The notes under the pieces are model-generated. The model did no database searches, was not told where the DNA came from, and saw only the letters and a program-made list of their open reading frames with translations. DNA of 64,000 nucleotides. Origin: an uncultured Planctomycetota bacterium (lineage in GTDB: Bacteria; Planctomycetota; Planctomycetia; Isosphaerales; Isosphaeraceae). A program made the position numbers and the translations under genes. Within the stretch, counting starts at the first letter, position 1. The number at the start of each line of letters is the position of its first letter. The stretch covers positions 1,792,001-1,856,000 of the forward strand of contig CAWGMQ010000008.1 in assembly GCA_963823665.1 (NCBI GenBank), in the 5' to 3' direction. This document shows, piece after piece, positions 14,801 to 35,415 of the stretch.

Positions 14801-15021
14801 TGATTCGCGATGCTTGCGTTGCCGGGTTCTGAATTGATTTGAAATCAGGAGGTGACCGGCGTGGATTGGGGTGAGAAACGAGGTGAACCGCCGTTGCTGT
14901 GCGCTTTGGGGGTGGATAATTACCTACGTCCCCTTTTCGGTTGATATGGACCTGCGCGGATGGTAATTTAGGAGTCCACTGTCAAGTAATTGATCAAGCG
15001 ATGAACGGCGGGAGGGCAACG

Positions 15022-18000
15022 ATGACAGTCGCCCTGAGGTCACCACTCGAGATCGGGCAGCTCGTCGAGGTGCGATCGCGGCGCTGGGTGGTGAACGAGG
15101 TGGTGGCGAGTACGCTGCCGGCGCGTTCCCTCGAGGCCGCGCCGGGCCCGCCACAGCATCTCGTTTCGTTGCTTTCGCTCGAAGATGACGCCCTCGGGGA
15201 AGAGCTGCGGGTGATCTGGGAGATCGAGCCGGGTGCCACCGTAGTCGAGAAGGCGGCTCTGCCGCGGGCGACGGGTTTTGACCCACCCGAAAAGCTCGAC
15301 GCGTTTCTGGACGCCGTGCGCTGGGGGGCTGCTTCGACGGCAGACGTGCGGAACATCCAGTCGCCATTCCGGGCCGGCATCGACATCGAGGACTACCAGC
15401 TCGACCCCGTCTTCCGAGCGATCCAGATGCCGCGGGTGAACTTGCTGATCGCCGATGACGTCGGGCTGGGGAAGACCATCGAATCAGGGCTGGTCGCCCT
15501 CGAGCTGATCATTCGGCACAGAGCGCGGCGGGTGCTTGTCGTCTGCCCGGCATCGCTCCAGGTCCAGTGGCGCGACCAGATGCGAGACAAGTTCGGGCTG
15601 GATTTCCGGATCGTGGACAGCGAGCTGCTGCGAGATCTGCGGCGGCGGCGAGGCATTCATGTTAACCCATGGTCGCACTTTCCCCGGCTGATCACCTCGC
15701 TCGACTTCCTGAAGCGAGAGCGGCCGCTGCGGCTGTTTCGAGAAACTCTGCCCGCCGAGGGCGAATCGATTTATCCGCGGCGCTACGACCTGCTCATCGT
15801 GGATGAGGCGCACAACTGCGCGCCGGCCGGTCGCGGCAAGTATGCCACCGACTCGCTGCGCACGACCACCATCCGTACGCTGGCGCCTCACTTCGAGCAC
15901 AAGCTCTTCCTGACGGCAACGCCCGATAACGGGTATTCGGAGAGCTTCACCGCGCTGCTCGAGCTGCTGGACAACCAGCGATTTGCGCGGGGCATGGCCA
16001 CCGATAGCAAGGAGTTTCACCGCCAGAAGGATGCGGTGATGGTGCGCCGGCTCAAGTCTGAGCTGCCTAAGGATGACTATGGTCAGGACCGGTTTGCCAA
16101 GCGGGCTCTCGAGGCCCTGGAAGTCGACTACCCGGCCGAGGAACGACGGGTGCACGCGGCGCTGAAGCGCTACTCCGAGCTGCGGCAGGCCAACTGCGCC
16201 GACCATGCCGAAGAGTTCGCCACGGATTTCGTGCTGATGACGCTCAAGAAGCGGCTGTTCTCGAGCCCGGCGGCTTTCCTGCGGACGCTCGAACAGCACG
16301 AATCGTCGCTGAAGACCGCCAGGAAGCGCAAGGGCATCTCGAAACCCACTCGCGGAATTCTCCAGCGGCAGATCGATCGGGCGGAGGAGGATTACTCGGT
16401 CGATGACGAAGCTGAAGAGGCGACCTACGAGGCGATTGACTCGGCGGCGCTGCTCTTTCGGGAGCCGTCTGCCGAGGAGCTGGCGCTGCTGAAGGAGATG
16501 AAGTCGTGGGCCGGGCGTGCTATGGCCGGGCTCGATGCGAAGACCAAAGTGCTGACCGGGTGGCTGAATGAGCGTGTCCGGCCGGGGGGAAAGTGGTCGA
16601 ACGAGCGGGTGATCGTCTTCACGGAGTACAGGGCCACGCAGAATTGGCTGCACGGGGTGCTGGCTGCCGAGGGGCTTGCTGGGGGCGACCGGCTTTTGAC
16701 GATGTATGGCGGAATGGAGTCGAAGGATCGCGAGCGGGTGAAGGCGGCGTTTCAGACGGACCCGAAGCAGAGCCCCGTTCGGATCCTGCTGGCGACGGAC
16801 GCGGCTTCGGAGGGCATCGATCTACAAAACCACTGTTCGCGGATGGTTCATTTCGAGATCCCGTGGAACCCGAACCGATTGGAGCAACGCAACGGGCGCA
16901 TTGACCGGCATGGGCAGAAGGCAAAGACCGTGCAGATCGCGCACTTCGTGGGCAAGGGCTACAACGATCGTGAGCGGCGGCTGGTTGAAACGGCGGTCGG
17001 TGATCTCGAGGCCGATCTCGAGTTCTTGATGCGGGCGGTGAGGAAGGTCGAGGCGATTCGGGAAGACCTCGGCAAAGTCGGCCCCGTGATTGCAGACCAG
17101 GTGCAGGACGCGATGCTGGGGCGGCGGTCGAAGCTGGACACGAAGCGGGCGGAGGCGGAGTCTGAGCCGGTACGGAAGCTGTTCAAGTTCGAGCGGGATC
17201 TGGCGAAGCAGATCAAGGCGCTCAAGGATAAGCTTCAGGAGACCAGGCAGGAGCTGCGGCTCGATCCCGAGAATGTGCAGAAGGTCGTCGAGATCGCCCT
17301 GGAGCTTGCTGGTCAGCCGCCGCTCGAGGAAGCGAAGGTCGCGGGCCTGTGGCCTGATTCGAGCCTGAAGGCTTGCCCAGTCTTTCGGCTACCGGCTCTT
17401 TCCGGGAGCTGGGGGCAGTGTGCGGAGGGGCTTGCGCATCCGTTCACGGGGGAGCCACGGCCGTTCGTGTTCGCGCAGGATCTGGCGAAGGGCGCGAGGA
17501 TGTCGTGCTGGTGCATTTGAATCACCGGCTGGTGCAGATGAGCTTGCGGCTGTTGCGGGCGGAGATCTGGTCGCTGGCGGGTCAGAAGAAGCGGCTGAAT
17601 CGAGTGACGGCGCGGGTGGTGCCTGACTCGGCGCTCCAGCACATCGCGGCGGTCGCGCATGCGCGGCTGGTGGTGATCGGCGGCGACAGCCAGCGGCTGC
17701 ATGAGGAGATCATCACGGCGGGGGGCGAGTTTCGCGAGGGGCGGTTTTATCGCTTCGGTGCGCTCAAGGAGACGCCAGCGGCACTGGCCGCAGCCGCGGA
17801 CCAGGAGCCATCCGATGGTGTGAAGCAGAAGCTTCTTGATCTCTTGGTCAGGAATACCGAGCCGCTGCATCAGGCGCTGGAAGCCCGCGCGAGGGACCGG
17901 AGTGAGGGGCTGACCAAGATGCTGACGGAGCGGGCGGAGAAAGAGACATCGGATATCACGGCGATTCTGACCGAGCTGGAGCGAGCGATTCGGGATCAAC

Positions 18001-18230
18001 TGGACGATCCGGACTACAGGCAAGGGTTCTTGCCGGGGCTGGCGCCGGTCGAGCAGGAGCAATTTGAGCGGAATGTTGACGCGTTGCGCCGGCGGGTGGG
18101 GGAAATTCCGGGTGAGATTGAAAAGGAAACGGAGGCGATTCGGAAGCGGTTTGCTAACCCGCAGCCTCGGATGTTTCCTGTTGCGGTGACGTTCCTGGTG
18201 CCGGCACGGCTGGCCAGGGGGGGGCGGTGA
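15022..18230 (+). CDS. drmD: DISARM SNF2-like helicase DrmD (apparent frameshift near 17490)
   Basis: GQLVEVRSRRWVV N-terminus, LLIADDVGLGKT, DEAH, ATDAASEGIDLQ, WNPNRLEQRNGRIDRHGQ; continues in ORF 17373..18230. GGAGG precedes ATG 15022. Gene context drmMI/A/B/C. Confidence 0.92.
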
Positions 18231-18589
18231 TGGGGCCGCGGAAACGGATCGGGGACGATTCCCTGGTCGTCCGCTGTGGTCAGCCTCCCTTCGATCTTCC
18301 GATTCCGCTTTGCAGGCGCTGTGTGCAGCATGAAGGCGTTTTTGGTTACTCCGTTCAGTGTGACGATGTGGTTCCGTGGGAAAAGCTCGCCGGTTGGTGC
18401 CCGAATCAGAAGGTCGGTGTCACGACTGTCGGAGAAATCCGGGCTTTAGGGTACGATGTCATAGTCACCAGTGGTCGGGGGTGCCATGCGACTGTTGTCG
18501 TCCCGGTTGGCTGGGACCACGACACGTCGCAGGACTTGATCTTGCTGTTTCGTGAAGAAAGCAATCCCACGCCGAGGCGGCGACGATGA
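18230..18589 (+). CDS. Small hypothetical protein, candidate toxin (R...S...H pattern reminiscent of Tse2/ART-like folds)
   Basis: TGATG overlap with the drmD stop; VVRCG...GYSVQ...VGVTTVGEIRALGYDVIVTSGRGCHATV. Confidence 0.6.
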   Translation: MGPRKRIGDDSLVVRCGQPPFDLPIPLCRRCVQHEGVFGYSVQCDDVVPWEKLAGWCPNQKVGVTTVGEIRALGYDVIVTSGRGCHATVVVPVGWDHDTSQDLILLFREESNPTPRRRR

Positions 18590-19509
18590 AGACGATATTT
18601 GCCGACTATAACGCGGCGACCGAGGACGGCCACCTGTGGTTAACTTTCGAGGCGTCCCAGCAAGCCATCCGGGATGCGAAGCTCCATCCTGGAGATTGGG
18701 CGTGGTTGAGCGACGGTGAAGTTTTGGTCGGCGCTCAGTTGAGGATGGACGAGAAGTATGGGCTGGTCGGCGTTCCTGACTGGGATACGTTGGTGCCTCT
18801 CGACGAAGACGACACCCGCGATTACTTGAAGCACCTATCCGAGATTCAAAGACTTCTCGGTAAGAGCGGCGAACCCCTTCCGGATCCGAAGCGTGCGTTT
18901 GAGTTGTCGACGATCTTGGAAATCGTTGCACCGGCGGATGTCAAAGCGGCTTTCCCACCTGGGTTTTTCTCAGCCCGGCGCGCCGAGGCGCTGGCGATTC
19001 TTGGGAAGCTCGAACTGGCGCTCGTGGAGATCGAAGAGGCTCGCCGCCTGAATCCGGATAACGCGGATGACACTTGGACTTTCCTCGAGATTCTGCGTCG
19101 CCATGATCTTCCGCGAGCCAGGCGCGAGGCGGAAGCGCTGGCCCCGAGGGTGGACGTCCCTGCCAGCATTTTGGCGCAGTGCGTGAACGTGCTGGCGACC
19201 TGCGCGGACAATTTGACCGACGACCAGTTCGAACCAGTTGCCGAGAAGATCCTCGATTGGGCCGGTCGGTTTGAACGAGCGCCGGGCCGAGGGCGGGTGC
19301 GTGCGGGGGTGTTCGCTTTGTTCCAGTTTAACCTAGGAGTCGTTCTGCTGCGGCTCGGTCGTGGTGAGGCGGCGCGTGAAGCACTCAAGCTCGCGCGTGA
19401 TGTGGATCCCATTATCCCTGAGATCGAAGAGGCGGCACGATTGACGGTTTACGACGAGCGCGGCCGCGAGCTCGCCGTCCGGGTCCGTGGCAGGCCGATG
19501 GCGGCGTGA
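18586..19509 (+). CDS. Hypothetical protein: small beta-rich N-terminal domain (candidate immunity) fused to TPR-like repeats
   Basis: ATGA overlap with the previous gene. N-terminus IFADYN...GHLWL...DWDTL; C-terminal RAEALAILGKLELALVEIEEARRLNP and NLGVVLLRLGRGEAAREALKLARDVDP are TPR-like. Confidence 0.7.
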   Translation: MKTIFADYNAATEDGHLWLTFEASQQAIRDAKLHPGDWAWLSDGEVLVGAQLRMDEKYGLVGVPDWDTLVPLDEDDTRDYLKHLSEIQRLLGKSGEPLPDPKRAFELSTILEIVAPADVKAAFPPGFFSARRAEALAILGKLELALVEIEEARRLNPDNADDTWTFLEILRRHDLPRARREAEALAPRVDVPASILAQCVNVLATCADNLTDDQFEPVAEKILDWAGRFERAPGRGRVRAGVFALFQFNLGVVLLRLGRGEAAREALKLARDVDPIIPEIEEAARLTVYDERGRELAVRVRGRPMAA

Positions 19510-19575
19510 GCAGTCCTCGTGCTATCGCGCCGCAGCGACGAGGGGCTGGGGAACTTCGGGCGGAGAATACACAAC

Positions 19576-20220
19576 GTGGGCATTGGCATCACCGGGATGA
19601 GCAAGGCGAAGCGTGTCGCGTGTTCGGGCGAGTACGTTGAGGGCGAGTACGACGTCTGCCTTGAGAAGCATTTCACAATCGATCCACTTTCGCGGCGGCG
19701 AGGTGAGGTGAAGCCGGGCTGTTACAAGGTCGATCGAGGCGGTCGAACCTTCGACCTTGAGTTCGGTTACGCTGCGTATGATGGGTGGATCAGGCGACTC
19801 AGCTTGTTGGCTCTGGGTGTCGAGCCCGAAGAGGTCTGGCAGCACCGCCGCAGGTTCCGTGGCGAACCGTTCGTAGAGCTGATCAGTTTTCCGGATGCCG
19901 GCGGCGGTGCGATCGGACCGGTTGCTTCGGCCAATTTGTACTGCGATTTCGTGGCTTTCGCGCATCGGGCCAAGAGATATTATGCGATGTGCACGCCCGA
20001 CGAGTTCAAACCGCCTCTAGCCAGCAAACCATCTGCGAAGGAAAAGCCGCACCGAAATCGGATGGGGTTGTCGGACGTGATCGGGGTGACCGAAGCGCTC
20101 GGTGGGGGCGAATTTGTCTGGAGTGAAGGGGAAGACCTCGACTGGATGTGGCAGAGCTATCGGGACTTCCGGCAGGCATTCCGGCTGGCGAAGAATGACG
20201 GCCTCGTGGTTTTCTATTGA
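19576..20220 (+). CDS. Hypothetical protein
   Basis: GGAG then GTG at 19576; co-oriented ORF filling the gap before drmMI; PFVELISFPD...GAIGP and FRLAKNDGLVVFY blocks. Confidence 0.7.
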   Translation: MGIGITGMSKAKRVACSGEYVEGEYDVCLEKHFTIDPLSRRRGEVKPGCYKVDRGGRTFDLEFGYAAYDGWIRRLSLLALGVEPEEVWQHRRRFRGEPFVELISFPDAGGGAIGPVASANLYCDFVAFAHRAKRYYAMCTPDEFKPPLASKPSAKEKPHRNRMGLSDVIGVTEALGGGEFVWSEGEDLDWMWQSYRDFRQAFRLAKNDGLVVFY

Positions 20221-20244: not shown

Positions 20245-23200
20245 ATGCCCGCATCCCGCCACCACAATGAATGGCTTTCCCTGATCGATGTCTCGGGGCC
20301 GTTTCTTTCGGTTCCGGTGCTGACCCAGGTGTTTCCGCAGGGGTTGGATGCTCATGATGCGGAGCATGCTCGGCTGCTGAAGCTTGCGTTTGAAGAGTGG
20401 GAGGATAATCAGCAGGGCGAGCGGGCTAATGCGGCGATTCACCGGGAGTGGATCAGCTTCGTTCTGAGGCAAACTCTCGGCCTGCCGGATGAGGTGATTG
20501 CCGAGGGGCAGGCGATTCCGCAGACCCTGCGGGTCACGATTGCCGAGCACGGGGAGACTCTTAGGCCAGACCTTGTTGTTCGGAATCCGGAGGGTGGGGA
20601 AGGTGCGGGGACGGCTCGGCTGCTGGTGCAGGTTTATCCGGCCACGCAGGAACTTGAGAAACCTGTGCATGGCCGGCATTGGAAGGCTTCGCCGGCGACT
20701 CGGATGATGGAGTTGCTGCACGCGACGGACGTGCGTATCGGGGTCGTTACGAATGGTCAGGACTGGATGCTTGTTGATGCTCCGAAGGGGGAGACGACTG
20801 GGTTTGCTACGTGGGATGCCCAGTTCTGGGGCGAGGAGCCGGTGACGCTCAGGGCGTTTCGCAGCTTGCTGGGGGTCCAGCGGTTTTTTGGAGTGGCTGA
20901 GGGCGAGATGCTCGAGGCAATGCTCAACGATAGCGCCTCGAACCAGCAGGAAGTCACTGATCGGTTGGGGTATCAGGTTCGGGAGGCGGTTCAGGAAATC
21001 GTCCGCGCGCTGGATCGGGTTGATCAGGATGCCCATGGGGAGGTCCTGGCGGGCATTCCGGAGAGCGAGATCTACGAGGCGGCGCTGACGGTGATGATGC
21101 GGCTGGTGTTTCTGTTTTCGGCGGAGGAGCGGGGGCTGCTGCTCCTGGGCGATCCGCTTTATGACGAGCACTATGCCGTCTCGACCTTGGTGGCGAGATT
21201 GCAAGAAGATGCTGATCAGCACGGAGAGGAGGTGCTCGAGCGGCGGCATGATGCTTGGGTGCGGCTGCTCGCGACTTTTCGGGCTGTTTATGGCGGGGTT
21301 GTGCATGAACGGCTCAAGCTGCTGCCGTATGCGGGGAAGCTGTTTGATCCGGATCGGTTTGCATTTCTGGAGGGTCGCAGATCGGGCACGTCGTGGCAAG
21401 ATCCGCTTCAGCAACTGATTGCTCCGCTAGCAATTGATAGCCGGACTGTGCTTCACTTGCTTCGGTCGCTTCAGTATCTGACGCTGCACGGCGAGGCGCG
21501 TCGGCTGAGCTTTCGGGCGCTTGATATCGAGCAGATCGGGCATGTCTATGAGGGGCTGCTTGATCACACCGCCAAGCGGGCGACGGAGCCGATGCTGAGC
21601 TTGACGGCTTCGAAGGGGATGAGCCGGAGGTGGCGCTCGCGGAACTGGAGCGGCTGGCGATCAAGGGTGAGGCTGAGCTGATCAAGTTCCTGCGTGACGA
21701 GACGGGGCGATCGGAGAAGTCGCTCAAGAGGGCGCTGGATTCGCCCGTTGGCGGGGACGCGGCACGGAAGCTCAGGGCGGCCTGTGGCAATGACGAAGCA
21801 CTGTTCAGTAGCGTTTTGCCGTTTTCGGGATTGGTGCGTTATGACACGTGCGACCGGCTCGCGGTGATTCGCAAGGGCTCCGTGTTCGTGACGGCGGGAA
21901 CGGACAGGCGGTCGAGCGGGACGCACTATACGCCGCGGAGCTTGACCGAGCCGATTGTGCAGTACACGCTGGAGCCGCTCGTTTACTTTGGGCCTGCCGA
22001 GGGGAAGTCGAAGGAGGAATGGAAGCTCCGGACTGCGAAGGAACTGCTCGATCTCAAAGTGTGTGACATGGCGTGCGGGTCAGGGGCATTTCTTGTGCAG
22101 GCGTGCCGGTATCTGTCAGAGCGGTTGGTTGAGGCGTGGGAGGAGGCGGAGAGCGGACACTTGGGCGTGCCGAGCGTCGTGTCTGAGGGAGCGGCATCTG
22201 CTGGGGTTGTGAGCGAGCAACTGATCCCAAGGGACAGCGACGAGCGGCTGGCTTACGCGCGGCGCAGTGTGGCGCAGCGGTGCCTGTATGGTGTCGACAA
22301 GAATCCGCTCGCCGCCGAGATGGCCAAGCTATCGCTCTGGCTGTTGACCTTGGCCAAGAACAAGCCATTTACGTTTCTCGATCATGCGATCCGGTGCGGC
22401 GATTCTCTGGTTGGTATCCGGGACATCCGGCAGGTTCAATACTTCCAGTTGGATCTGGATCAGGCCGACCGGAGCCTCTTCGCGGGTCCCGTCATGAGCC
22501 TCGTGGAAGAGGCTGCCTCAGTCCGGAAGGAGCTCGAGTCTCTGCCTGCGAACACAGTCGAGGATGTGCGGGAGATGCAGAGGCTATTGGCGGACGCTGA
22601 AGATAAAACGGCCCGACTCTGCCACGCGGCGGATCTGCTCATCTCGGTCGAATTCCAGCCCGTCTCCTCGGCTGGTGAAAAGGACGACCTTCACAACAGC
22701 GTGGCGATTCAGGCGGGACATTATGTCCAGAGCGCGGCTCTGAAAGACTTTCGCGTAGCTGCGGAGCAGGCCTTGGGCGGGCAGGCGACCTTTCACTGGC
22801 CGCTGGCATTCCCTGAAGTAGTGGTCGAACGAGGTGGATTCGATGCGTTCGTTTGCAATCCGCCGTTTCTTGGTGGCAAGCGAATAAGCACGATGCACGG
22901 CGCGAAATACGAACGTTTTCTTAAGTCGGTAATTACTAGAAAAAAAGGCGCAGCAGACCTTTGCGCGTACTTCTTCATTCGGGTTTTTTCACTTCTTCGC
23001 AACGAGGGCAATTTTGGGCTTCTGGCAACGAACACAATTGCTCAGACGGACACCAGGGAGATCGGCCTTCTGACTGTCGAAGCTGAAGGAGCAATAACTA
23101 AAGCAGTTCCGTCAATGGCTTGGCCCGGAGCAGCGAATGTTATTGTCGCCCTCGTCCACGCCCATAAAGGCGCATGGCACGGCCCATTCATACTTAACGA

Positions 23201-24887
23201 CTCGGTTGTCTGTGCAATCAACTCCTACTTGTCGAGCGGAGATACGCTTAAGGAGCCCTACCGTCTTGCTCTAAACAAGCATTCATGTTTTGGAACTAAA
23301 GGGACGTACGTTCATGGAAAGGGATTTGTCATTTCGGCCGAAGAGGCAAGGGATTTCATTCAGCAAGACAACAACAATGCAGCGATACTGATGCCTTATT
23401 TGGTTGCTCAGGACTTTACCACTGATCCAGAACAAAGACCAAGCCGATTCGTGATTAACTTCGGTGACATGAATCGCCAAGAGGCAATGAACTATCGCTC
23501 TCTGTGGGATCACTTAGTTTGCACCGTTCAACCCATACGCGATGCTTTGAAAGGTCAAATTCACGAGAAGTGCTTTTGGAAGTTTTGGGATCGAAGAGAC
23601 GACTTGTACGACCGAGCAAGTCAGCTCGGTCACGTCTTGGTCTGCCCTGAGGTGAGCAAGTACAGCGCCTTTGCCCTCGTCATCAACAAGTATGTGTTTT
23701 CCAGCATGGTTAATGTAGTAGCTTCCGACAGCACAGGCCTGTTTGCCTGTGTCCAATCCTCTGTGCATGGCACATGGGCATGGCATCATGGCTCAACAAT
23801 GAAAACCGATCTACGTTATACGACAAGTGATTGTCTTGACACGTTTCCGTTTCCTGAAAATTGGTCACTTGTTGATGATATCGGCGAACGCTATCATTTC
23901 TCCCGTCATGGGATCATGGTTTCGCACTGTCAGGGCTTGACGAGAACATACAATCGTTTCCACGACGAAAGTGAGTCTAACGCCGATATTCGGAAACTGC
24001 GTCGACTCCACGTCGAGATGGATACCGCCGTCGCCGCTACCTACGGGTGGACCGACCTAAATTTTGACCACGGCTTCCACGAGACCAAGCAGGGCAACCG
24101 ATTCACGATCAGCGAATCGGCTCGACGGGAAGTGCTCGCGCGGCTGTTGACGCTCAACCACGAACGCTATGCGAAGGAAGTGAAACAAGGCCTCCACGAT
24201 AAGAAGACTAAGGCCAAACCTGCATCGAGCGGCCGGGGTCGAATATCCAAGGCGTCTCCCAGCGCACCGAGCCTCAACTTTGGCGACGATGAAGACGAGC
24301 CCGACCGGGCGGCGGCCACGGACGATGAGGGTGCCGACACTGCCTCGCACGCCGAAGACGCCGCGTCGAGAGCGGCGCGAGCCGACTGCCAGATTGCGCC
24401 GGCTCCCGCGGCGGATGACCCTCCCCGCCCGGTGCCGATTGATCAGATCGAGACGGACGCCGTCATGGCTGCGTTTCGGCAGGCTGCGCGGGGCCGGGGT
24501 CGGATGGAGCGCGATGAGCTTTTGAAGGAGGTTTCGCTGATTTTGGGATACCAGCGGCTTGGGCCCAGGATTGTTGAGTCGCTGCGCGGGCATCTGCGGG
24601 CGGCGATTCGGCGCGGGATCATTGAGGCTGAGGGGCCGTCGCTTGTTCGTGCTGGGACGGGGACGATGTCGGATTATGGGCTTGAAGCCTTGCGCGAGAC
24701 GTTTCGGTCGGTCATGAGACAGGGCACGAACTACGATCGCGAAGATTTGATCCATTCCCTTGCTCATCACCTGGGGTTTGTTCGGGTTACTGACACGATT
24801 CGGGAGCCGATCAAGTCGGCGATTAATAGTGCGATTCGGCAGGGGTTGCTGGGGTGTGAGGGTACTGCGATCTGGAGGATAAGCTGA
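20245..24887 (+). CDS. drmMI: DISARM class I adenine methyltransferase DrmMI (type IIG/Eco57I-like architecture; apparent frameshift near 21617)
   Basis: HHNEWLSLIDVSGPFLS N-terminus, IGHVYEGLL, GTHYTP, motif I DMACGSGAFL, GVDKN, motif IV NPPF; located between drmD and drmA. Confidence 0.9.
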
Positions 24888-24962: not shown

Positions 24963-25550
24963 ATGCGGTACTTGAGCGAACTCTATCGGCTCATCACCAA
25001 GCGACATACAGACATTGTTGTCTTAATAGATGAGGCACACCGCGGATGGAAGCAAGGTGCCGATGAGAGGTTGCTGAATATCGTCGAGGGGTATCGCAAG
25101 GAGGACATCGAAATATCGCCGTCATACTTGGAGCAACTCAACATCGAATCGTCGCTCTTGCAAGAAACGGAGCGAGTAATGTTCGCTGGCCTTGCGGTCG
25201 CGATTGCCTCTGTAACAGAGAACATTGTTGGTGGAATGTGTAAGCACCTCAACCTGCCTCTGGTTAAGAGCGACGGCACTCGAATCGAACGACCAAACTT
25301 CGGTAACAAGCAGACTGCAATTGAGAAACACCTCGGCATCAAGTTCTGCCGTTTGACGGGATTTGACGGGAATCGCCTGGCTCGGCTTCTGGCCAATTGC
25401 TACAAGCATTCCGAGGGCAGGGTCAATCAAGAACTCGCAAAGGCGTTCAGAAGGACGAAGGGCGAGGTTATCGCATACGAGAAGGAGAATTGGGGGCACA
25501 TGATTAGCGAGACTAAATTGTTCCTCGACGGGCTGGGTGCGAGGCTCTAG
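24963..25550 (+). CDS. Hypothetical all-helical protein, candidate HEPN-like RNase
   Basis: RLLANCYKHSEG resembles an R-x-x-x-N-x-x-K-H HEPN variant, preceded by an acidic helix (VAIASVTE); lower GC than flanks. Confidence 0.5.
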   Translation: MRYLSELYRLITKRHTDIVVLIDEAHRGWKQGADERLLNIVEGYRKEDIEISPSYLEQLNIESSLLQETERVMFAGLAVAIASVTENIVGGMCKHLNLPLVKSDGTRIERPNFGNKQTAIEKHLGIKFCRLTGFDGNRLARLLANCYKHSEGRVNQELAKAFRRTKGEVIAYEKENWGHMISETKLFLDGLGARL

Positions 25551-25726: not shown

Positions 25727-26479
25727 TTGAGGATCGTCGCCTGGAACATTAACCACCGCATTCGAGAAAAGGTCATCCCAGATCAGATGATCGAGGCGAT
25801 CGTCTCACTCGGCCCCGACGTCATCGTCTTGACCGAGTGCGTCCACGGGCCTTCCCGCAGTGCATTTCTCGAGAAGCTAGCGGATCACGGTTTGTGTCGA
25901 TGGCTCGTTTCCGAGTGCAGGAAGCGCGAGAATCACGTGCTGATTGCGTCACGGACGGCAATTGAACAGGGGCCAATCCGGGCGCCAGAGATCGCCCCTT
26001 CAGTGCCATCGAACGTGCTTCACGTTCGTCTGCCGGAAGAAGGGCTCGAAATCCTCGGAATTCGTGTGCCCGACCTCAGCAAGGATCCGAAAACCAAGCG
26101 GGCCTGCTGGAATTGGATCATCGAAACGGCGAAATCCGTGAGGGATCGTCCGTTTGTGATGATCGGCGACTTCAACACCGACCCGAAGTACCCGCCGAGC
26201 AAGTGCGGTGGTTGCATCAAGACGCTCGTTGCTGGCGGCTGGCAGCTCGCTTCTCCTGCGGACGGTGCGAGCTTCTGGACCTTGAACGGCCATGCGGTCT
26301 GCATCGACCACGCGTTCGTGAGTGGACTCTTGCGCGTCGATGGAGCGTGCTACGTTACGAAGCGCGACGGGCACATTTTCGCGGGGAAGGAGCCAGGCGC
26401 ACTGTCGGACCATGCTGCCCTATTGGTCGATGTCACGCTGGGCGCGTCGTTTCTACGTGACGCGCACGCGGGAGAGTAG
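25727..26479 (+). CDS. Endonuclease/exonuclease/phosphatase (EEP, DNase I-like) family protein
   Basis: MRIVAWN, PDVIVLTE, GDFN, IDH, SDH motifs; GAGG upstream of TTG start. Confidence 0.88.
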   Translation: MRIVAWNINHRIREKVIPDQMIEAIVSLGPDVIVLTECVHGPSRSAFLEKLADHGLCRWLVSECRKRENHVLIASRTAIEQGPIRAPEIAPSVPSNVLHVRLPEEGLEILGIRVPDLSKDPKTKRACWNWIIETAKSVRDRPFVMIGDFNTDPKYPPSKCGGCIKTLVAGGWQLASPADGASFWTLNGHAVCIDHAFVSGLLRVDGACYVTKRDGHIFAGKEPGALSDHAALLVDVTLGASFLRDAHAGE

Positions 26480-26795: not shown

Positions 26796-26895
26796 TGAGG
26801 TTCGGATACGTTGAAGCACCTGGGCCGGCTCGTGTGGTCTTGGTTCGAGATCTGCCGTTCGGTTGCTCTGTCTCTGGCCCCCGGGAGCGAACGAG

Positions 26896-27879
26896 ATGCC
26901 CCCCGTCAGCCCACCTCCGATCGCACTGACATCGCTGAGGATACGCGACTTCCGGGGAATTGAATCACTCGAACTCGATTTCCAAGGGCCGGATGGCCTG
27001 CCCAATCGCCTCGTCGTACTGTCCGGGCCGAACGGAAGCGGCAAGACGGCCGTGCTCGAAGCCGCATTGATCGCCGTCGGCGGTTACAAGCTCGCCGTCG
27101 GACATCGTGGAAAGCGGGCCGTTCGGCGAGGAGCCGAAGATTACGAGATTCGAGCGGAAATCCGCGCACGCACGAGCACGTACGACGACGATGAGGTGTT
27201 TGTGGATTCCTCTGGGGGTCTACCGCCGAGGAATGACCCCAGGTTGCCTTTCTGGTACTTCTCTTCCTGGCGTGCACCGACTCTCGTCGGAGCGGTCAAT
27301 GTGAGCGTCGGCAAGCGGGGGCGGAGTCCCGCCACGACGGAACCGAATCGCTTGCTGCACGTGAAACAGAAGCTCGCGAATGCTGCCGCCGCGGAAAGCT
27401 TCCCCGGGGCTAACCCGTCTCAGGGGCGCAGCTATTCGGAATGGATTGCCAGGATCAATGAGGGTTGGAAGAAGTTCTACCCCGATCGCAACGGCGAGTT
27501 CGTCGTCGGCCTCATTGAGTCGGAGGGGGCCGGTGATGGGGCCTTTGAGGTGTTCTACAGGCGGGAGGGCTCGGCATCGCTTTCGGTCGATGAGTTGAGC
27601 GCGGGGCAACTGGAATTGTTCATGTTCCTGACGACACTCGTCCTGAACGACGATCGAGAGGGAATCGTGTTCATCGACGAGCCCGAACTGCATCTTGATC
27701 CCCAGTGGCACACGCCGATTGTCCGTGCATTAATGCAGTTGCAGCCCCGAGCGCAATTCATTGTTGCGACGCACTCTCCCGGCATCTACGACGCGGCGAT
27801 GTCTTATGAGCGGCATTTCCTGGTCGCCGAAGACGACCCGCGCGCACGCGCATGGCCGAGAATCGGCGCAGGGGCGTAA
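26896..27879 (+). CDS. ABC-type (AAA_15/AAA_21-like) ATPase, PARIS AriA-like
   Basis: LRIRDFRGI, Walker A GPNGSGKT, signature LSAGQ, Walker B IDEPELHL, H-loop ATHSP; no TM partner. Confidence 0.88.
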   Translation: MPPVSPPPIALTSLRIRDFRGIESLELDFQGPDGLPNRLVVLSGPNGSGKTAVLEAALIAVGGYKLAVGHRGKRAVRRGAEDYEIRAEIRARTSTYDDDEVFVDSSGGLPPRNDPRLPFWYFSSWRAPTLVGAVNVSVGKRGRSPATTEPNRLLHVKQKLANAAAAESFPGANPSQGRSYSEWIARINEGWKKFYPDRNGEFVVGLIESEGAGDGAFEVFYRREGSASLSVDELSAGQLELFMFLTTLVLNDDREGIVFIDEPELHLDPQWHTPIVRALMQLQPRAQFIVATHSPGIYDAAMSYERHFLVAEDDPRARAWPRIGAGA

Positions 27880-27885
27880 CCGGCC

Positions 27886-28731
27886 ATGCCGCACGACGTT
27901 GCCCGCGATGCGCTCTACAACGGCCAGATCAACATCTGGGTCGAAGACGAGGTCACGCGTGCCTACCTTTCCGCCCTCTGGGATACGCCCGCCGTCGCGT
28001 TCTTCATCGGTGGCGGCAACGAAGGTGTCCGCGCCATCGTGAAGGACGCAGAAGAGTCGGGTTTCACAAATGTGTTCGCTCTGATCGACCGTGACTTCCG
28101 GCGAACGAATAGGCCGGACTGGTTCGCGACGACGAAAACGTTTCGCACGTTCGTCCCGCCGGTCCACGAGATCGAGAATTACCTGCTGGACGCTGATGCG
28201 TTGGCCGCGAGTCGTTTCAACAACCTGAAAAAGTCAAAGGTAGAGATCGAATCGGTGATGCGTGTGGCCGCCGGTCGGCTATTGTGGTGGGCCGCGTGCA
28301 GGGATGTTGTCGCGGAGTTGAGGCGGCGGTTCCGGGAAGGGTTCCTGCGCGATCCCACCTGCGACGTGAGCAGCGACATTCAGGCTCGAGACCACATTTG
28401 CTCATCACCCTGGTTTCGGAAACTCGCACACGAGTGCGAGCGGACAACCGAGGCGGAGGTCGACCAACTGTTATCCACCGCTCGCGCCGCAGCAGACCAG
28501 GCCCTAGCTGACGGGAACTGGAAGTCCGAGTTCGCGGGCAAGGAAATCCTCCGCGATGTCGGCAGCCGGATCTGCGACCGCACGAAGATTCGAGGGTATA
28601 AGCCGAGCGCGGCTGAGTTCGATGGTGATCTTGCGAAAGAGGTCGGTGCCTGGCAGAGGGACAACGATGCTGTTCCGTCTGATCTCACCGATCTGCTTGT
28701 CGCGCTTCAGATTCGGATTGCACGTTCTTGA
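27886..28731 (+). CDS. TOPRIM-like nuclease (DUF4435-like), PARIS AriB-like
   Basis: IWVEDE, GGGNEGV, IDRDF (DxD), HEIENYLLD and C-terminal GKEIL; 6 nt downstream of the ATPase. Confidence 0.75.
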   Translation: MPHDVARDALYNGQINIWVEDEVTRAYLSALWDTPAVAFFIGGGNEGVRAIVKDAEESGFTNVFALIDRDFRRTNRPDWFATTKTFRTFVPPVHEIENYLLDADALAASRFNNLKKSKVEIESVMRVAAGRLLWWAACRDVVAELRRRFREGFLRDPTCDVSSDIQARDHICSSPWFRKLAHECERTTEAEVDQLLSTARAAADQALADGNWKSEFAGKEILRDVGSRICDRTKIRGYKPSAAEFDGDLAKEVGAWQRDNDAVPSDLTDLLVALQIRIARS

Positions 28732-29113: not shown

Positions 29114-32100
29114 ATGAGCGTCCTACAATCCATCCCATCGCCAACCAAGATTCGCGAAGAGCTCGAGCAGATGGTTCTCAAGGATCTGCTTGGGCCGGCG
29201 GGTGGGGCGGAGGAGGAGATTGACGAGCAGAGCGTTCGGGACCGGTACCTCGTCGGGATGCTCGCGCCCACGCGGCAGGAGCTAGCGCCTGAGGAATTTG
29301 ATGAGCTGAGCCAGGGGGGGAGTGCGCCGGTCGAGGACGGGTCGGCGGAACTCACCGCGCCGAGCACCAAAACGATGTTTCCCTCGTCGTTCGGGATGAC
29401 GTTTGCTGTCAATCGGGAGGCCAAAGAACTACGCGTAACGGCTCGGTGGGGGCATTACCGGCGCGACCGCAGCGAGAATCTCACAAACGCCAAAGGCGAC
29501 AAGAAACTCATCTGGAAACGCTGCCAGAGGGAAGCTGTCTCGGAGCCGATTGCCCTCAAGGCCGGCAAGATCAGGTGGACGCCGGATGTCGAGTTTCCGC
29601 AGGTGCAGGTGCACGGGCTCGTCCGCAAGCGCGAGGACTTCTGGAGCGTCACGCTGTTCCTCGTCAACGGGCAGCAGGAACCGCAGAAGCTGAGGGACAC
29701 GGCCTGGTTGTTTCAGCCTGTGCTCAGCGTCGAATCGCCCGACGGGGAGCCGATCTTCCACTGCCAGCCGACCGGGCGGGATTCGGGCAGGGCCGATCCG
29801 GTGGCGTTTGCCGAGGAGCAGGAGATGGCGATGCTGTATCGCCGCCGCGTCGAGTTTGCGGTCGGGCACGGGGTCAGCGTGAGCGCGATTTGTCCGGATG
29901 GAATCAGCGACCGGGCGTCGCGTTTGACGACCGAGGTCGTTCCCACCTATGAGGTCGCGCGGACTACGCCACCCGCTTTGGCCGAACGGCCTGGCATGCA
30001 TGGGCTCGTAACGGACATGAAGGAGCTGGGCGAGACGGAGACTCCGCAACTGGAGGCGAAGCTACGGCCATTGATCACGGCCTATGCAGCTTGGATCGCG
30101 GAACGAGGGGCTGACCTTCAACAGCCCGATATGGCAGGCCACCAGGAGCCGGGGCGTGCTGCGCTCGCGCGATGCCGGGAGACGCTGCGCCGCATCGAAG
30201 ACGGCATCGAGCTGTTGCTCGAGGACGCGCTGGCGGCGGAGGCGTTCCGGTTTGCCAACCTGGCCATGTGGCAGCAGCGCATTCACACGATCGTTTCGCT
30301 CAAGAGGCGGCGGGATGAGCAGGTCGACGAGCGGTCGATCGATGTTCCGGCGAATCGGTCGTGGTATCCGTTTCAGCTTGCGTTTGTGCTGCTCAACCTG
30401 CGCGGGATCACCAAGCTCGACCATTCGGAGAGGTGCGGGGCGCTGACGCTGGTGCGGACCTGCTGTGGTTTCCGACCGGTGGCGGGAAGACCGAGGCTTA
30501 TCTGGGGCTGTCGGCGTACACGATGGGATTACGGCGACTGCAGGGGATGGTGGCGGGGCGATCGGGCGAGCACGGGGTTGCGGTGCTCATGCGGTACACG
30601 CTTCGCCTTCTGACGATCCAACAGTTCCAGCGAGCGAGCGCGCTGGTCTGTGCGTGTGAGGTGATTCGCCGGACCGATGAGTCGAAGTGGGGGAACGAGC
30701 CGTTCCGCGCGGGGTTATGGGTCGGGCAGAAGACGACTCCGAACACGACGGAAGCGGCTGCGGAGGCGATTCAGCAGGAACATGGCGGGAAGTACAAAGG
30801 GCGAGGGAGCGGCTCGCCGGCGCAGTTGACGAATTGCCCATGGTGCGGCTCGAAGATTAACCCGGGGCGTGACATCAAGGTCGAGCGGTTTGCCAAGGGC
30901 CGGTGCCGGACGATTTCGTTCTGCGGTGATGTGCTGGGACGGTGTCCGTTCAGCGCGAAGAATTCACCGCTGGAGGGCATTCCGGTGCTGGTGGTCGACG
31001 AGGAGATTTACCGCCGCTTGCCAAGCTTGTTGATCGCCACTGTCGACAAGTTCGCCCAGATGCCGTGGAACGGCACGGTGCAGATGCTGTTCGGCCAGGT
31101 TGACGGATATTGCACGCGTCACGGTTTCCGCTCGCCCGAGATCGAGGACAGCGACACGCATCCGAAGAAGGACAGGTTTCCATCGGCGAAGACAATTCCA
31201 CACGCGCTGCTTCGGCCGCCGGACCTGATTATCCAGGACGAGCTCCACTTGATCAGCGGGCCGCTCGGGACCTTGGTCGGGCTCTACGAGACGGCCGTGG
31301 ACAAGCTGTGCTCGTGGACGGTTGACGGCAAGACGGTGCGACCGAAGCTGATCGCTTCAACGGCGACGATTCGCAAGGCGGGCGACCAGGTGCATGCGAC
31401 GTTTCTGCGGAAGGTGAGTGTGTTCCCGCCCAACGGGCTGGAGGTTGGGGACAACTTCTTCGCTTTGCAGCGCGCGCCTTCCGAGCAATATCCAGGGCGG
31501 CGGTATCTCGGCATCTGCGCGCCGGGTCGGCGGCTGAAGGTTGCCCTGATCAGGGTGTATGTCGCGTTGCTTTCGGCCGCGCAGGCTCTTTACGAGAAGA
31601 AAGCGTATGGGCTCGAGGTTGACGCATGGATGACACTGCTGGGCTATTTCAACTCGATGCGTGAGCTGGGCGGGATGCGACGGCTTGTCGACGACGATGT
31701 GCGCACGCGACTGGGGAAGATGGACCAGCGGGGGCTCGTTCGCAGGACGCTGTATTCGATCGACGAGCTGACCTCGCGGAAAGACTCGACGGATATTCCC
31801 GACGTGCTCGACCATCTCGAGGTTGCATTCGACCCGCAATCGGAGGCACGGCGGAAAGAGCTGCAACGGAAGGGTCACATCAAGGAATTGCCGAAGCGGC
31901 CGCTCGACGTGCTGCTGGCGACCAACATGGTTTCGGTGGGCGTCGACGTGCAGCGGCTGGGGTTGATGGTGGTCGGAGGGCAGCCGAAGACGACGGCCGA
32001 GTACATCCAGGCCACGAGCCGGGTTGGTCGAAAACACCCTGGCTTGGTTTTCACCGTGTACAACTGGACCAGGCCGCGGGACCTTTCGCACTACGAACGG

Positions 32101-32648
32101 TTCGAGCACTACCATGCGACGTTTTACAATCACGTGGAGGCGCTGTCCGTGACGCCGTTTGCGCCGGGGCGCTGAGCCGGGGGCTGACGGCGCTTCTGGT
32201 CTCGTGCATCCGGTTGCAGGGGACGGAGTTCAACGCCAACAAGAGGGCGAGCAAGATCGACCGGAACCATCCATACGTCAAGGAGGCGATCAAGACGATC
32301 GTGCGGCGGGCAGAGCTGGTGGGAAGCGGCGACGGGGACGAGTCGTTTGTAGCGAACCTCAAGACCGAATTGAACGAGCGGCTTGACCAGTGGCTGGCCG
32401 AATCGCAGAAGACGGCGGGCGGGCGCGTGCTTGGCTATGACGAGGAGCGCGACGGGATCACCGTGGGGCTGCTCCACCGGCCGGGGCTCGAGCCCTGGGA
32501 TGATTTCACGTGCCTGAACTCGCTGCGCGATGTTGAGCCGAACGTGGGATTGATCCTGCATGACGGCGGGCTCGACGCGGACCCGGGTTTCGTCGGCGAG
32601 GCTCGCGATGACGAAGACGGAGAGAACGACGAGGAGGAAGCGGAATGA
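29114..32648 (+). CDS. drmA: DISARM SF2 helicase DrmA (apparent frameshifts near 30438 and 32167)
   Basis: DLLGPAGG N-terminus, WYPFQLAF, PTGGGKTEAY, QDELH, STAT, ATNMVSVGVD, YIQATSRVGR, SLRDVE. Three fragments join by adding one G in each of two G runs. Confidence 0.92.
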
Positions 32649-34609
32649 CCGGGTCGTCTACGACAGAGCGGCGCAAGATCGGCGACATCCGGCCGAACCA
32701 GTTGCTGTTCACGGGCGGTGTGGGGGCGATTGTCGAGCTGCCGAATCTGTCGGTGATGGTGATGGGTCTTGATGATTGGCCCGTTGATCAGGGTGTGGCG
32801 GAGATCAGCGAGCCGCGACTGCTCAAGGCTGTGCAGTATGAGCTTGGTCCGCAGGTTGCGAAGCTGCTCACGCCGCCGGTTGCGAACGAGTCGGTGGGTG
32901 TCGCGGCGAGCCCGTTTGATGATACGGCGAACCTGGGCGTTCCGGTGGCGCCGTTTCCGCGCTGGCAGGTTTGCCCGCACTGCCGGCTGCTGGCGCCGAT
33001 CCAGTCGGGTCTGTTCGAGCTGCGGCTGGACCCTTATCGCAAGGACCGGAGCCGGTATGTGCATCGCAACTGCCACAAGAAGGGGAAGCCTCCGTCGGTC
33101 GTGCCTGCCCGGTTCCTCGTGGCGTGTGAGCGCGGGCACCTGGATGATTTTCCGTGGGTGGAGTTTGTCCATCGTGGGCATACTGATTGCCGCTATGAAC
33201 TGCGGCTCTACGAGCTAGGTGCCTCGGGAGAGGTGGCCGATGTCCAGGTGGAATGTGTTCGGTGCGAGCAACGGCGGCGAATGAGCGATGCGTTCAGCGA
33301 GGAGGGGCGACTTGAGCTGCAACGATGCCGAGGCCGATGGCCGCATCTGCGAAAATACGACGAGGCCCCTTGCGAGGGAACTCAACGAGCGATTCTCTCG
33401 GGCGCGTCGAATAGCTGGTTCCCGATCTTGCTGACGGTGCTGTACATTCCAAGCACGCCCGACAGGCTGAGCCAGCAGATCGAATTGAACTGGGCGGAGC
33501 TGGAGGAATGCGAATCGGCGCGGGATATCAAGCTCAAGCGGAAATTGCTCAAGGGGCTGGCGACGTTCTCCGAGGAGCAGATCTGGGAGGCGGTCGTCAA
33601 ACGGAAAGCGGGGACCGACGACGGGGCTGTAGAAGTGCCCGATTTGCGCGAGCCGGAATGGGCGGTGTTCTCGAACCCTGACCCGAATTTGAATAGCCGG
33701 GATTTCAAGTTGCGGGTCGTCGAGCCGCCGGCTGCGTACAAGAAGGTGATCAGCAAGGTGGTGCTGGCGGAGCGGTTGCGGGAAGTGCGGGCGCTCGTCG
33801 GGTTTACTCGAATCGAGTCGCCCGGCGACTATACGGACATCGGCGATTTTCCGAGGGACCAGCGGGTGTCGCTCAGCCGGTCCGCGCCCAAGTGGGTGCC
33901 GACGTGCGAAGTGCGTGGCGAAGGGATTTTCCTGCAGTTTTCCGAGCAGGCGATTGGGGAGTGGATCAAGGAGACAAGGGAGCGCGAGGCCGAGTTTTTC
34001 GAGGGGCACCGGAGGTGGCGGCAGAAACGGGGACTGGAGCCCGACGATGGGTTTCCGACGATGCGGTACGTTCTGCTGCATTCGCTGGCACATGCCTTGA
34101 TCCGGCAGTTTGCGATCGAGTGTGGGTATACGACGGCGAGCATTCGCGAGAGGATTTACTCGCAGGCCCCGGGGGGCGATGCGGAGCCGATGCCGGGAAT
34201 TTTGCTCTATACCGCCGCGCCGGACAGCGAGGGGACGCTTGGCGGCCTGGTGGCGCTGGGTGGGCCGAAGGTCTTGGGGCGGCATCTGGATCAGGCGCTG
34301 GACTCGATGCGGCTGTGCGCGTCGGATCCTCTCTGCGCCGAGCATCGCCCGATGAAGGATGGGCTGACCTTGCATGGCGCGGCGTGTCATGCGTGCCTGT
34401 TCCTGCCAGAGACGAGCTGCGAGCGCGGCAACAAGTATCTGGACCGGAGTGTGCTAGTCTCGACCGTCGAGTCGGACGGCTTGGCCTTTTTCACTGAATC
34501 TTCCGAGCCGCTTCCGAAGGCAACGATCATTGCGCACACGGATGAGCTGATCACGCCGCCGAAGCCGATCGAGGTGGGTGTCACCGAAGGCGATGAGCCG
34601 GGAGAGTGA
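32645..34609 (+). CDS. drmB: DISARM DUF1998 protein DrmB
   Basis: IRPNQLLFTGGVGA, CxxC motifs, LLHSLAHALI, EGTLGGL, CASDPLC...ACHAC...ETSCERGN Zn cluster; ATGA overlap with drmA. Confidence 0.93.
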   Translation: MTGSSTTERRKIGDIRPNQLLFTGGVGAIVELPNLSVMVMGLDDWPVDQGVAEISEPRLLKAVQYELGPQVAKLLTPPVANESVGVAASPFDDTANLGVPVAPFPRWQVCPHCRLLAPIQSGLFELRLDPYRKDRSRYVHRNCHKKGKPPSVVPARFLVACERGHLDDFPWVEFVHRGHTDCRYELRLYELGASGEVADVQVECVRCEQRRRMSDAFSEEGRLELQRCRGRWPHLRKYDEAPCEGTQRAILSGASNSWFPILLTVLYIPSTPDRLSQQIELNWAELEECESARDIKLKRKLLKGLATFSEEQIWEAVVKRKAGTDDGAVEVPDLREPEWAVFSNPDPNLNSRDFKLRVVEPPAAYKKVISKVVLAERLREVRALVGFTRIESPGDYTDIGDFPRDQRVSLSRSAPKWVPTCEVRGEGIFLQFSEQAIGEWIKETREREAEFFEGHRRWRQKRGLEPDDGFPTMRYVLLHSLAHALIRQFAIECGYTTASIRERIYSQAPGGDAEPMPGILLYTAAPDSEGTLGGLVALGGPKVLGRHLDQALDSMRLCASDPLCAEHRPMKDGLTLHGAACHACLFLPETSCERGNKYLDRSVLVSTVESDGLAFFTESSEPLPKATIIAHTDELITPPKPIEVGVTEGDEPGE

Positions 34610-35415
34610 CGATGTCGAACGGGCTTTCCCTGGTCGCCGGGCGTGCGGTCACGCTCGTCAAGAGTTTGCCGATGGGCCTGGTCGAGACGCTTGTGGCGCG
34701 GCTGGAAATTGGTGATGCTCAGGATCGGAAAACGCTGAGCGAGCGGGTTCTGCTGGCAATTCCCGGAGCTCATCAGCGGGAACTCGTCGGCGATTTCTTT
34801 CGGGAGTGGAGGACCCACGCAGCTGAAGTGAATCCGTCTTCGGTTGCCGCCGCGCTGCTCACCGCATCTTTGGCGAACGACAACAGGCGCGAGGAAGAGT
34901 CTCTTGAGTTGGTCTGGACGGGGCCGGATGCGGATGCGGGCCCGATCCGGAGGACCGAGCAGGTGATTCTGGAGGTCATCGATTCGGCCAGCCAGCGGGC
35001 GACGATTGTGAGTTACGCAGTGTATTCGATCCCTCATATTTGTGGATCGCTTGTGCGCGCGGCGGGCCGTGGCGTTCGGATCAATGTGATCGTCGAGACG
35101 CCGGACAAGCTCGAGGGCAGGAACGAGTACAGCACGCTTCGAGCGCTCGGTGCCGAAGTGGCGGATTGTTCGACCGTCTATTACTGGCCGAAGCAGAATC
35201 GTGGGGTCGATCGGAATGGCAAGCTCGGAAGCCTGCATGTCAAGTGCGTGGCCGCCGACGGTCGATGGCTGTTCCTCTCGTCGGCTAATCTGACCGACTA
35301 TGCGTTTTCGATCAACATGGAGCTGGGATTGCTGGCGCGGGGTGGGGACTTGCCCGGGAGGGTTGAGAAGCATTTCGACCGGCTGATCGAGCGCGGGGTG
35401 CTGGCGAAGCTGTGA
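34606..35415 (+). CDS. drmC: DISARM phospholipase D-family nuclease DrmC
   Basis: LVWTGP, HVKCVAAD (HxKxxxxD), SSANLT, NMELG; GTGA overlap with drmB. Confidence 0.92.
   Translation: MTMSNGLSLVAGRAVTLVKSLPMGLVETLVARLEIGDAQDRKTLSERVLLAIPGAHQRELVGDFFREWRTHAAEVNPSSVAAALLTASLANDNRREEESLELVWTGPDADAGPIRRTEQVILEVIDSASQRATIVSYAVYSIPHICGSLVRAAGRGVRINVIVETPDKLEGRNEYSTLRALGAEVADCSTVYYWPKQNRGVDRNGKLGSLHVKCVAADGRWLFLSSANLTDYAFSINMELGLLARGGDLPGRVEKHFDRLIERGVLAKL

Follow-up and report, generated by a model that had tools for sequence, protein, structure and literature searches.

The window, i.e., the whole 64,000-nucleotide stretch of DNA that was analysed, derives from a 16.5-Mb metagenome-assembled genome (MAG; G000) whose relatives are labelled Isosphaeraceae, and it carries a class I DISARM locus in which PADLOC recognised drmD, drmMI, drmA, drmB, and drmC. 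Between drmD and drmMI lie two genes, herein called the toxin and its partner, around which the features used throughout this study are arranged as follows (coordinates in the window):

14941..18230, + strand: drmD, the SNF2 helicase of class I DISARM (PADLOC DrmD), in two frames, 14941-17520 and 17373-18230
18080..18232, + strand: 3' tail of drmD, in which a purine-rich stretch precedes the start of the toxin; includes the TGATG overlap
18230..18589, + strand: gene for the 119-aa predicted ART-fold toxin, with R15 at 18272-18274, S41 at 18350-18352, and H86 at 18485-18487
18586-19509, + strand: partner ORF (307 aa)
18586..18801, + strand: partner residues 1-72, an acidic, beta-rich domain and putative immunity/antitoxin domain, by homology to the small genes found behind the toxin domain at other loci
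18802..19488, + strand: partner residues 73-301, a TPR-like superhelix predicted to pack on the N-domain (pTM 0.90)
19492..19509, + strand: C-terminal tail of the partner, RPMAA-stop, with a conserved terminal Ala-Ala and likely a ClpXP degron
19519..20220, + strand: accessory gene for a 233-aa protein of no family, near the pair only in G035 and L126 among the loci checked
20245..24887, + strand: drmMI (PADLOC), in two frames in the assembly
24963-25550: gene for a 195-aa protein of no family, cargo in the DISARM locus
25727-26479: exonuclease/endonuclease/phosphatase gene, cargo in the DISARM locus
26863..28731, + strand: second cargo pair, an AAA_21 ATPase and a DUF4435 protein, with weak AriA/AriB-like matches
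29114..35415, + strand: drmA (split in the assembly), drmB, and drmC, the remainder of the class I DISARM locus

The stop codon of drmD (TGA, 18228-18230) shares a base with the start codon of the toxin (ATG, 18230-18232), giving TGATG, and the toxin stop in turn overlaps the partner start in an ATGA at 18586-18589. An earlier sequence-only reading had described this layout (drmD, TGATG, a 119-aa gene, ATGA, and a 307-aa gene), and both junctions, as well as all the sequence motifs it quoted, are found in the window. The toxin gene is a stand-alone ORF in another frame than drmD and encodes no N-terminal delivery domain, and the segment that spans the ATGA junction (18261-18687) has 0 differences from short-read contigs. 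Elsewhere in the locus, the assembly splits the frames of drmD (17373-17520), drmMI (about 21614-21681), and drmA (30361-30613). The contig of a relative, with 25 differences in 200 letters, has one extra base at 21614, and, judged from the contig of this relative, the splits are likely assembly indels.

The AAA_21 and DUF4435 genes (26863-28731), which give weak AriA/AriB (PARIS-like) matches and lie inside the DISARM locus, were also seen near the toxin-partner pair, as one or both genes, in G029, G051, G031, G013, and G087. The GC content goes down to 0.54 between 22000 and 25000, i.e., in the 3' part of drmMI that includes the target-recognition domain, which is consistent with a swapped specificity module.

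The small protein and its origin

Single-sequence searches retrieved 33 homologues of the toxin and 142 of the partner. Purifying selection was observed for the toxin (dN/dS 0.11–0.27, four pairwise comparisons) and for the TPR region of the partner (0.24, one pair tested), while the N-domain of the partner gave a dN/dS of 0.07–0.14 (four pairwise comparisons); on these homologue counts and ratios, both are real genes. A toxin profile of 37 rows matches 1,770 proteins of 52–216 aa, in searches that under-sample fused and very distant forms of the family. Neither the toxin nor the N-domain was assigned to a family in Pfam, NCBIfam, PADLOC, or PHROGs, or had a sequence match in the PDB, and viral contigs, phage records, and plasmids held no match. 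The Atlas groups the toxin with mostly cyanobacterial clusters that are auto-named “flavoredoxin” and have no Pfam family, an identity that we rejected as an automatic label without Pfam support; the same resource also gives DUF6098 for the toxin, with a score of 0.94.

The structural model of the toxin (pLDDT 90.7) has six strands. In a VIA structural search with this model, the top 18 of the 50 rows were all proteins of the ART fold with its split beta-sheet, some of which we take to have this fold, and the best match was AvrPphF ORF2 (Z 6.1, rmsd 3.9, 95 aligned), with KptA at Z 5.2, Tpt1 at Z 4.3, and Tse2 at Z 4.0 (rmsd 3.8, 93 aligned, 15% identity). Since even the best of these scores falls under the VIA caution line of Z 8, the fold assignment rests on the coherence of the match list; Foldseek gave no match for the model at E <= 0.001 against the PDB and viral models. 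The ART-like fold that had been proposed from the sequence is hence a prediction from weak scores and a coherent list. The spaced arginine, serine, and histidine singled out at the same time are conserved across the family, with R15 present in 118, S41 in 121, and H86 in 121 of the 121 aligned toxins. In the model these residues fall in strands E12-15, E37-45, and E86-90, respectively, which by our own reading of the model are strands 1, 2, and 5 and match the positions at which ART catalytic residues lie according to the available part of PMC13617354. A catalytic glutamate is absent at strand 5 of the model. The chemistry of the toxin would probably be ADP-ribosyl transfer, with NAD+ hydrolysis as a more tentative candidate.

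A distant subfamily of the toxin was found at L159, L160, and L162 (G465, G588, and G597, respectively), where no immunity-type homologue was detected; the L159 and L160 sequences keep R, S, and H.

The sequence-only reading had likened the pair to the tip of a polymorphic toxin and its small immunity protein, a resemblance that extends to the genomic context of the family. At L007 and L059 the toxin domain tips Rhs proteins at their C-terminus, and it sits after a Hint domain at L036 (PT-HINT, with a frameshifted tip) and L157; cognate polymorphic toxins are present in both Planctomycetota and Verrucomicrobiota. With the first 73 residues of the partner as query against 19 candidate ORFs, a homologue of the N-domain (E 5e-10 to 2e-3) lies directly downstream of the toxin at 15 of the 17 distinct distant loci (19 ids minus two duplicates), which identifies the N-domain as the family's immunity-position gene. 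Thirteen of the 15 homologues are short (78–126 aa) and two have other extensions, while the two exceptional loci are L157, where an unrelated gene follows the toxin, and L036, where the N-domain is found one gene further on. The derivation of the module from a polymorphic toxin tip and its small immunity gene is thus supported.

Immunity-type domains also occur in other architectures. At L036 (1198-1821 and 2080-3260, G039), the PT-HINT gene with its frameshifted toxin tip is followed by one ORF and then by a 207-aa ORF, in which a toxin-like domain, degenerate and with other residues in place of S and H, is fused to an immunity-type domain, possibly as a decoy-immunity fusion or as an indel artefact. 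Fusions to other C-terminal extensions, in proteins of 261 and 294 aa, were seen at L033/L156 (G045) and L158 (G443), which suggests a repeated gain of extra domains on the antitoxin.

The partner protein and its Ala-Ala tail

The model of the partner (pLDDT 93, pTM 0.90) consists of a beta domain (residues 1-72), TPR-like helices (residues 73-301), and an unstructured tail, and it agrees with the architecture previously read from the sequence, a beta-rich N-domain of ~70 aa followed by TPR-like helices. A VIA search with the whole partner returned a list filled with TPR matches (Z 12.6). The N-domain, which has a net charge of −10 and is the best conserved portion of the protein, is predicted to pack with the TPR region as one unit. 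No DNA-binding domain for autoregulation was found in the partner.

The TPR region and the terminal Ala-Ala occur together only in the Isosphaeraceae form of the partner. The exact Ala-Ala end was found in 106 of 113 partners and, after clustering at 60% identity, in 34 of 36 representatives. The same end is seen in 1 of 229 background ORFs (crudely called from the loci under study), in 1 of 121 toxins, and in none of the 13 short partners. Across 29 loci chosen as Ala-Ala-ending, each of the four Ala codons and each of the three stop codons occurs, and the DNA beyond the gene varies, which implies that selection acts on the protein end. According to the accessible text of 10.1101/2024.02.24.581848, the ssrA degron of ClpXP depends above all on its terminal Ala-Ala, and the Ala-Ala of CmdA is required for ClpXP-dependent toxin release in the CmdTAC system; Ala-Ala alone is insufficient for ClpXP, as 39% of Ala-Ala 5-mers were weak in the E. 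coli screen described in the available part of PMC10862746. The host genome has clpX, and its tmRNA tag ends in LAA. From these comparisons, the conserved tail likely marks the partner for destruction by ClpXP, and the terminal Ala-Ala points to a proteolytic release of the toxin for which a sensor would not be needed.

The MAG of the window holds three tmRNA and three clpX matches over the cut-off (C10:360462-363932, C10:422392, C8:2039527, C4:228403, and C5:1496917), with a distance of 2 kb between one tmRNA and a clpX.

Pairing, decay, and the slot behind drmD

A toxin match was found in 33 of the 121 Isosphaerales genomes, and at all 26 close toxin loci in this genome set (E < 1e-20) the toxin is adjoined by a TPR-type partner. 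In the metagenome loci, the partner stands beside the toxin in 18 of 19 cases and the 19th stops at a contig edge, so that the two genes co-occur well beyond the window, as their proposed pairing entails. Searching from the partner side gave 32 loci at E < 1e-25, or 31 when G069:C12, at a contig edge, was left out. An intact toxin and the N-domain were found together in 20 of the 31 (the N-domain of G018 being cut by the contig end), whilst in 10 the toxin is stopped, shifted, deleted, or gone and the N-domain is intact; a deletion through both was seen once (G044), and an intact toxin without the N-domain was never seen (0 loci). This one-sided decay is the asymmetry expected of a toxin and its antitoxin, in counts where kin are not independent, where some loci come from long-read MAGs with indels, and where some “broken” toxin calls (G025, possibly G078) may be sequencing errors. 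The frameshifts in the partner are located after residue 120, mostly in long-read MAGs. Partners without a working toxin are mostly full length and keep the tail, with the Ala-Ala end present in 8 of 11 copies, which suggests that the partner may be useful alone or that the losses are recent.

At L002 (5026-7277) in G029, which belongs to the same genus, a toxin with an internal stop has a partner copy on either side, 72% and 90% identical to the partner of the window, and the first of these copies is separated from the toxin by a short drmD stub.

The drmD end is present in 24 of the 121 genomes. Among 25 distinct drmD ends (30 loci minus one duplicate and minus four without downstream DNA), the pair or its remnant lies behind 8, in three drmD clades, and other genes occupy the remaining 17. 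The pair is therefore cargo in a variable slot after drmD and not a core gene of class I DISARM; of the link to drmD that had been put forward for the window, the coupling through TGATG holds, whereas a fixed partnership does not, given its occurrence at 8 of 25 drmD ends only. The slot itself (L065-L091) holds a different gene in most Isosphaerales loci and is likely a hotspot for undescribed defence cargo.

Seen from the side of the pair, 8 of the 31 loci lie behind a drmD gene, 8 more carry a decayed drmD tail (including G006, counted as a stub on a contig too short to exclude drmD further upstream), and the remainder are found among unrelated genes. The decayed tails, which precede many free-standing copies of the pair and correspond to 18080..18232 of the window, score 8.5–67 bits, whereas 600 shuffles reached 3.3 at best. 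On the tree of the pair, copies with a stub and those linked to drmD are intermixed, which indicates that loss or transfer has taken place more than once. A TAnnnT hexamer was found 77–81 nt before the toxin start in 6 of 9 stub regions versus 0 of 5 drmD-linked ones, at the position taken in the window by drmD codons 18147-18155. The retention of this −10-like box in decayed stubs suggests a promoter; no sigma-70 consensus promoter was found in the window between 17900 and 20400. Among 27 distinct drmD ends, the hexamer is encoded only in that of G026 (as R-Y-D), which carries the partner, and the box can thus be inherited from a drmD, an observation that weakens the idea that it arose anew in every stub. 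We also considered that the drmD tail might derive from the cassette, and discarded this idea for the MFPVAV part because drmD genes in general have it. Two routes would lead to these loci: the pair is retained while DISARM around it decays, which addiction would predict, or the cassette recombines into other drmD ends by means of the stub.

Proposed mechanism and relation to known systems

The reading that we favour, with a probability of roughly 55%, is that the pair constitutes a type II toxin-antitoxin module derived from a polymorphic toxin-immunity pair, in which the N-domain blocks the toxin and ClpXP turnover through the tail frees it when resupply stops. The toxin would be a NAD+-using enzyme of the predicted ART fold and presumably toxic to its host cell, and the N-domain of the partner likely binds it directly and blocks it. 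ClpXP would turn over the antitoxin through the Ala-Ala tail, and when partner synthesis stops, either by loss of the island or by phage shut-off, the toxin would be freed and the cell poisoned. For the TPR region, the most likely role is to stabilise the antitoxin or to give it a scaffold, and to bear the degron. Such a module could act both as an addiction element that stabilises the DISARM island and in abortive infection upon phage shut-off of host expression, and it would move as a cassette that includes the drmD end and can outlive DISARM.

The main rival would share most of this anatomy and differs in what triggers the release. Here the TPR region would bind a phage protein, or would keep the Ala-Ala tail covered until displaced by a phage protein; destruction of the antitoxin by ClpXP would then free the toxin, as in a one-chain analogue of the toxin-antitoxin-chaperone (TAC) systems. 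The exclusive combination of TPR and Ala-Ala in the Isosphaeraceae form would suit such a device, as would the predicted packing of the N-domain and the TPR region as a unit, although the tail is exposed in the partner model and the selection on the TPR region (dN/dS 0.24, one pair) is purifying and not diversifying. Similarly, the location of 16 of the 31 loci behind drmD or a drmD stub is in line with this reading, but many copies of the pair sit between housekeeping genes. There is precedent in CmdTAC, where a chaperone accompanies the ART toxin and the Ala-Ala degron, and in HigBAC, a related system whose chaperone senses a phage protein (both from the accessible text of 10.1101/2024.02.24.581848); the TPR region of the partner, however, has no known ligand, and overall we consider sensor-gated release possible but unlikely. 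An extended version, which we would put forward as speculation, is a phage-triggered suicide switch made from a polymorphic toxin-immunity pair, whose toxin is of an unclassified R-S-H ART family and whose immunity protein was fused to a ClpXP degron and a TPR sensor, as a one-chain equivalent of chaperone-gated TAC, in a cassette with its own promoter that uses the conserved drmD end to recombine into unrelated DISARM loci.

Two further readings fit less well. The partner could mainly guard against competitors' Rhs/Hint toxins of the same family, the small gene being a dispensable toxin remnant, and the loss of the toxin with retention of the partner in 10 of 31 loci, the two partner copies around an interrupted toxin in G029, and the cognate polymorphic toxins in Planctomycetota and Verrucomicrobiota are all in its favour; it is nevertheless improbable, as purifying selection acts on the small gene and its R, S, and H are conserved, the toxin starts from its own codon as a stand-alone gene coupled to that of the partner, and an immunity protein meant to protect would hardly benefit from a degron. 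Least probable by our estimate is an accessory DISARM regulator, in which the TPR protein serves as adaptor for a non-lethal ART whose substrate is a DISARM subunit or DNA ends, since the coupling to drmD, the 8 of 25 drmD ends in three clades, and the presence of KptA/Tpt1, which act on nucleic-acid ends, among the nearest folds are set against other genes at 17 of 25 drmD ends, 23 of 31 pair loci that are not behind a drmD gene, and the use of the domain as a secreted-toxin tip, which argues for toxicity.

Returning to the toxin-antitoxin reading, a type II module is already of a known kind, and what is new lies in its parts: an unclassified toxin family, and an antitoxin composed of an immunity domain, a TPR region, and a degron. 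The pair had been flagged from the sequence as a candidate undescribed system, and we found no description of the module or the toxin family in the open literature, although subscription papers, supplements, and large prediction tables could list the family. The toxin belongs to a large and unnamed family of predicted ART fold in which the R-S-H site is unusual, and a gene of 119 aa suffices to test what it targets. Three stages of one transition appear to be caught within it, namely the secreted tip with its immunity gene, the stand-alone pair with a small antitoxin, and the lineage form with TPR and degron. Since immunity proteins need no instability, the gain of the Ala-Ala tail suggests the conversion of a weapon pair into an addiction or abortive-infection module. 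In this case, the exchangeable slot of DISARM would harbour a back-up toxin, and would do so in planctomycetes, a group in which defence systems have received little study.

With regard to known systems, the window locus has the class I DISARM genes drmD, drmMI, drmA, drmB, and drmC, and the pair lies outside this core set. The best structural matches of the toxin, AvrPphF ORF2 (Z 6.1) and KptA/Tpt1 (KptA 5.2), are respectively a plant-targeted effector and a housekeeping RNA enzyme, which differ from it in sequence (6–12% identity) and have no common gene context with it.

The sequence-only reading had compared the small protein to Tse2 of Pseudomonas aeruginosa, with which its model shares a small ART-like fold (PDB 5ako, Z 4.0). 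By sequence it is not a member of the Tse2 family: ADPRTs_Tse2 (PF18648) gave no match to the toxin or to 28 relatives at E <= 1, nor in G000, where control genomes gave none either, and hhalign of the toxin alignment against one PF18648 match returned a probability of 0.2%. At most, the toxin would work like Tse2. Tse2 is secreted, whereas the window toxin is stand-alone with a TPR partner, and the immunity protein Tsi2 is helical, in contrast to the beta-rich N-domain. The predicted pocket of Tse2 comprises R14, T79, S80, and a histidine in the available part of 10.64898/2026.06.15.732508, i.e., the same residue types at a different spacing, with R and S 66 residues apart in Tse2 and 26 apart here.

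Like the toxin domain, whose ART fold is predicted, the Rhs-borne ART/NADase tips TreX, TreTu, TreThr, and Tne5 are found as ART-fold domains at the ends of Rhs proteins, followed by a small immunity gene, but their catalytic sets, as given in the accessible portions of PMC13617354 and PMC13285283, are R-S/T-E or R-Y-E, R-H-h, and K/E, with no R-S-H among them, and the window toxin gene, unlike these tips, encodes no delivery domain. CmdTAC resembles the pair in its ART toxin (an ART fold being predicted for the toxin here), in an antitoxin ending in Ala-Ala (with ClpXP dependence in CmdTAC), and in its defence context, according to the available text of 10.1101/2024.02.24.581848. The SecB-like chaperone encoded by the third gene of CmdTAC and HigBAC is absent here, where the downstream genes vary and the third gene of the window matches no family; in its place, the antitoxin carries the TPR region. 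The pair further differs from CmdTAC in its R-S-H toxin residues, in its gene order of toxin then antitoxin, and in its origin from a polymorphic toxin-immunity pair.
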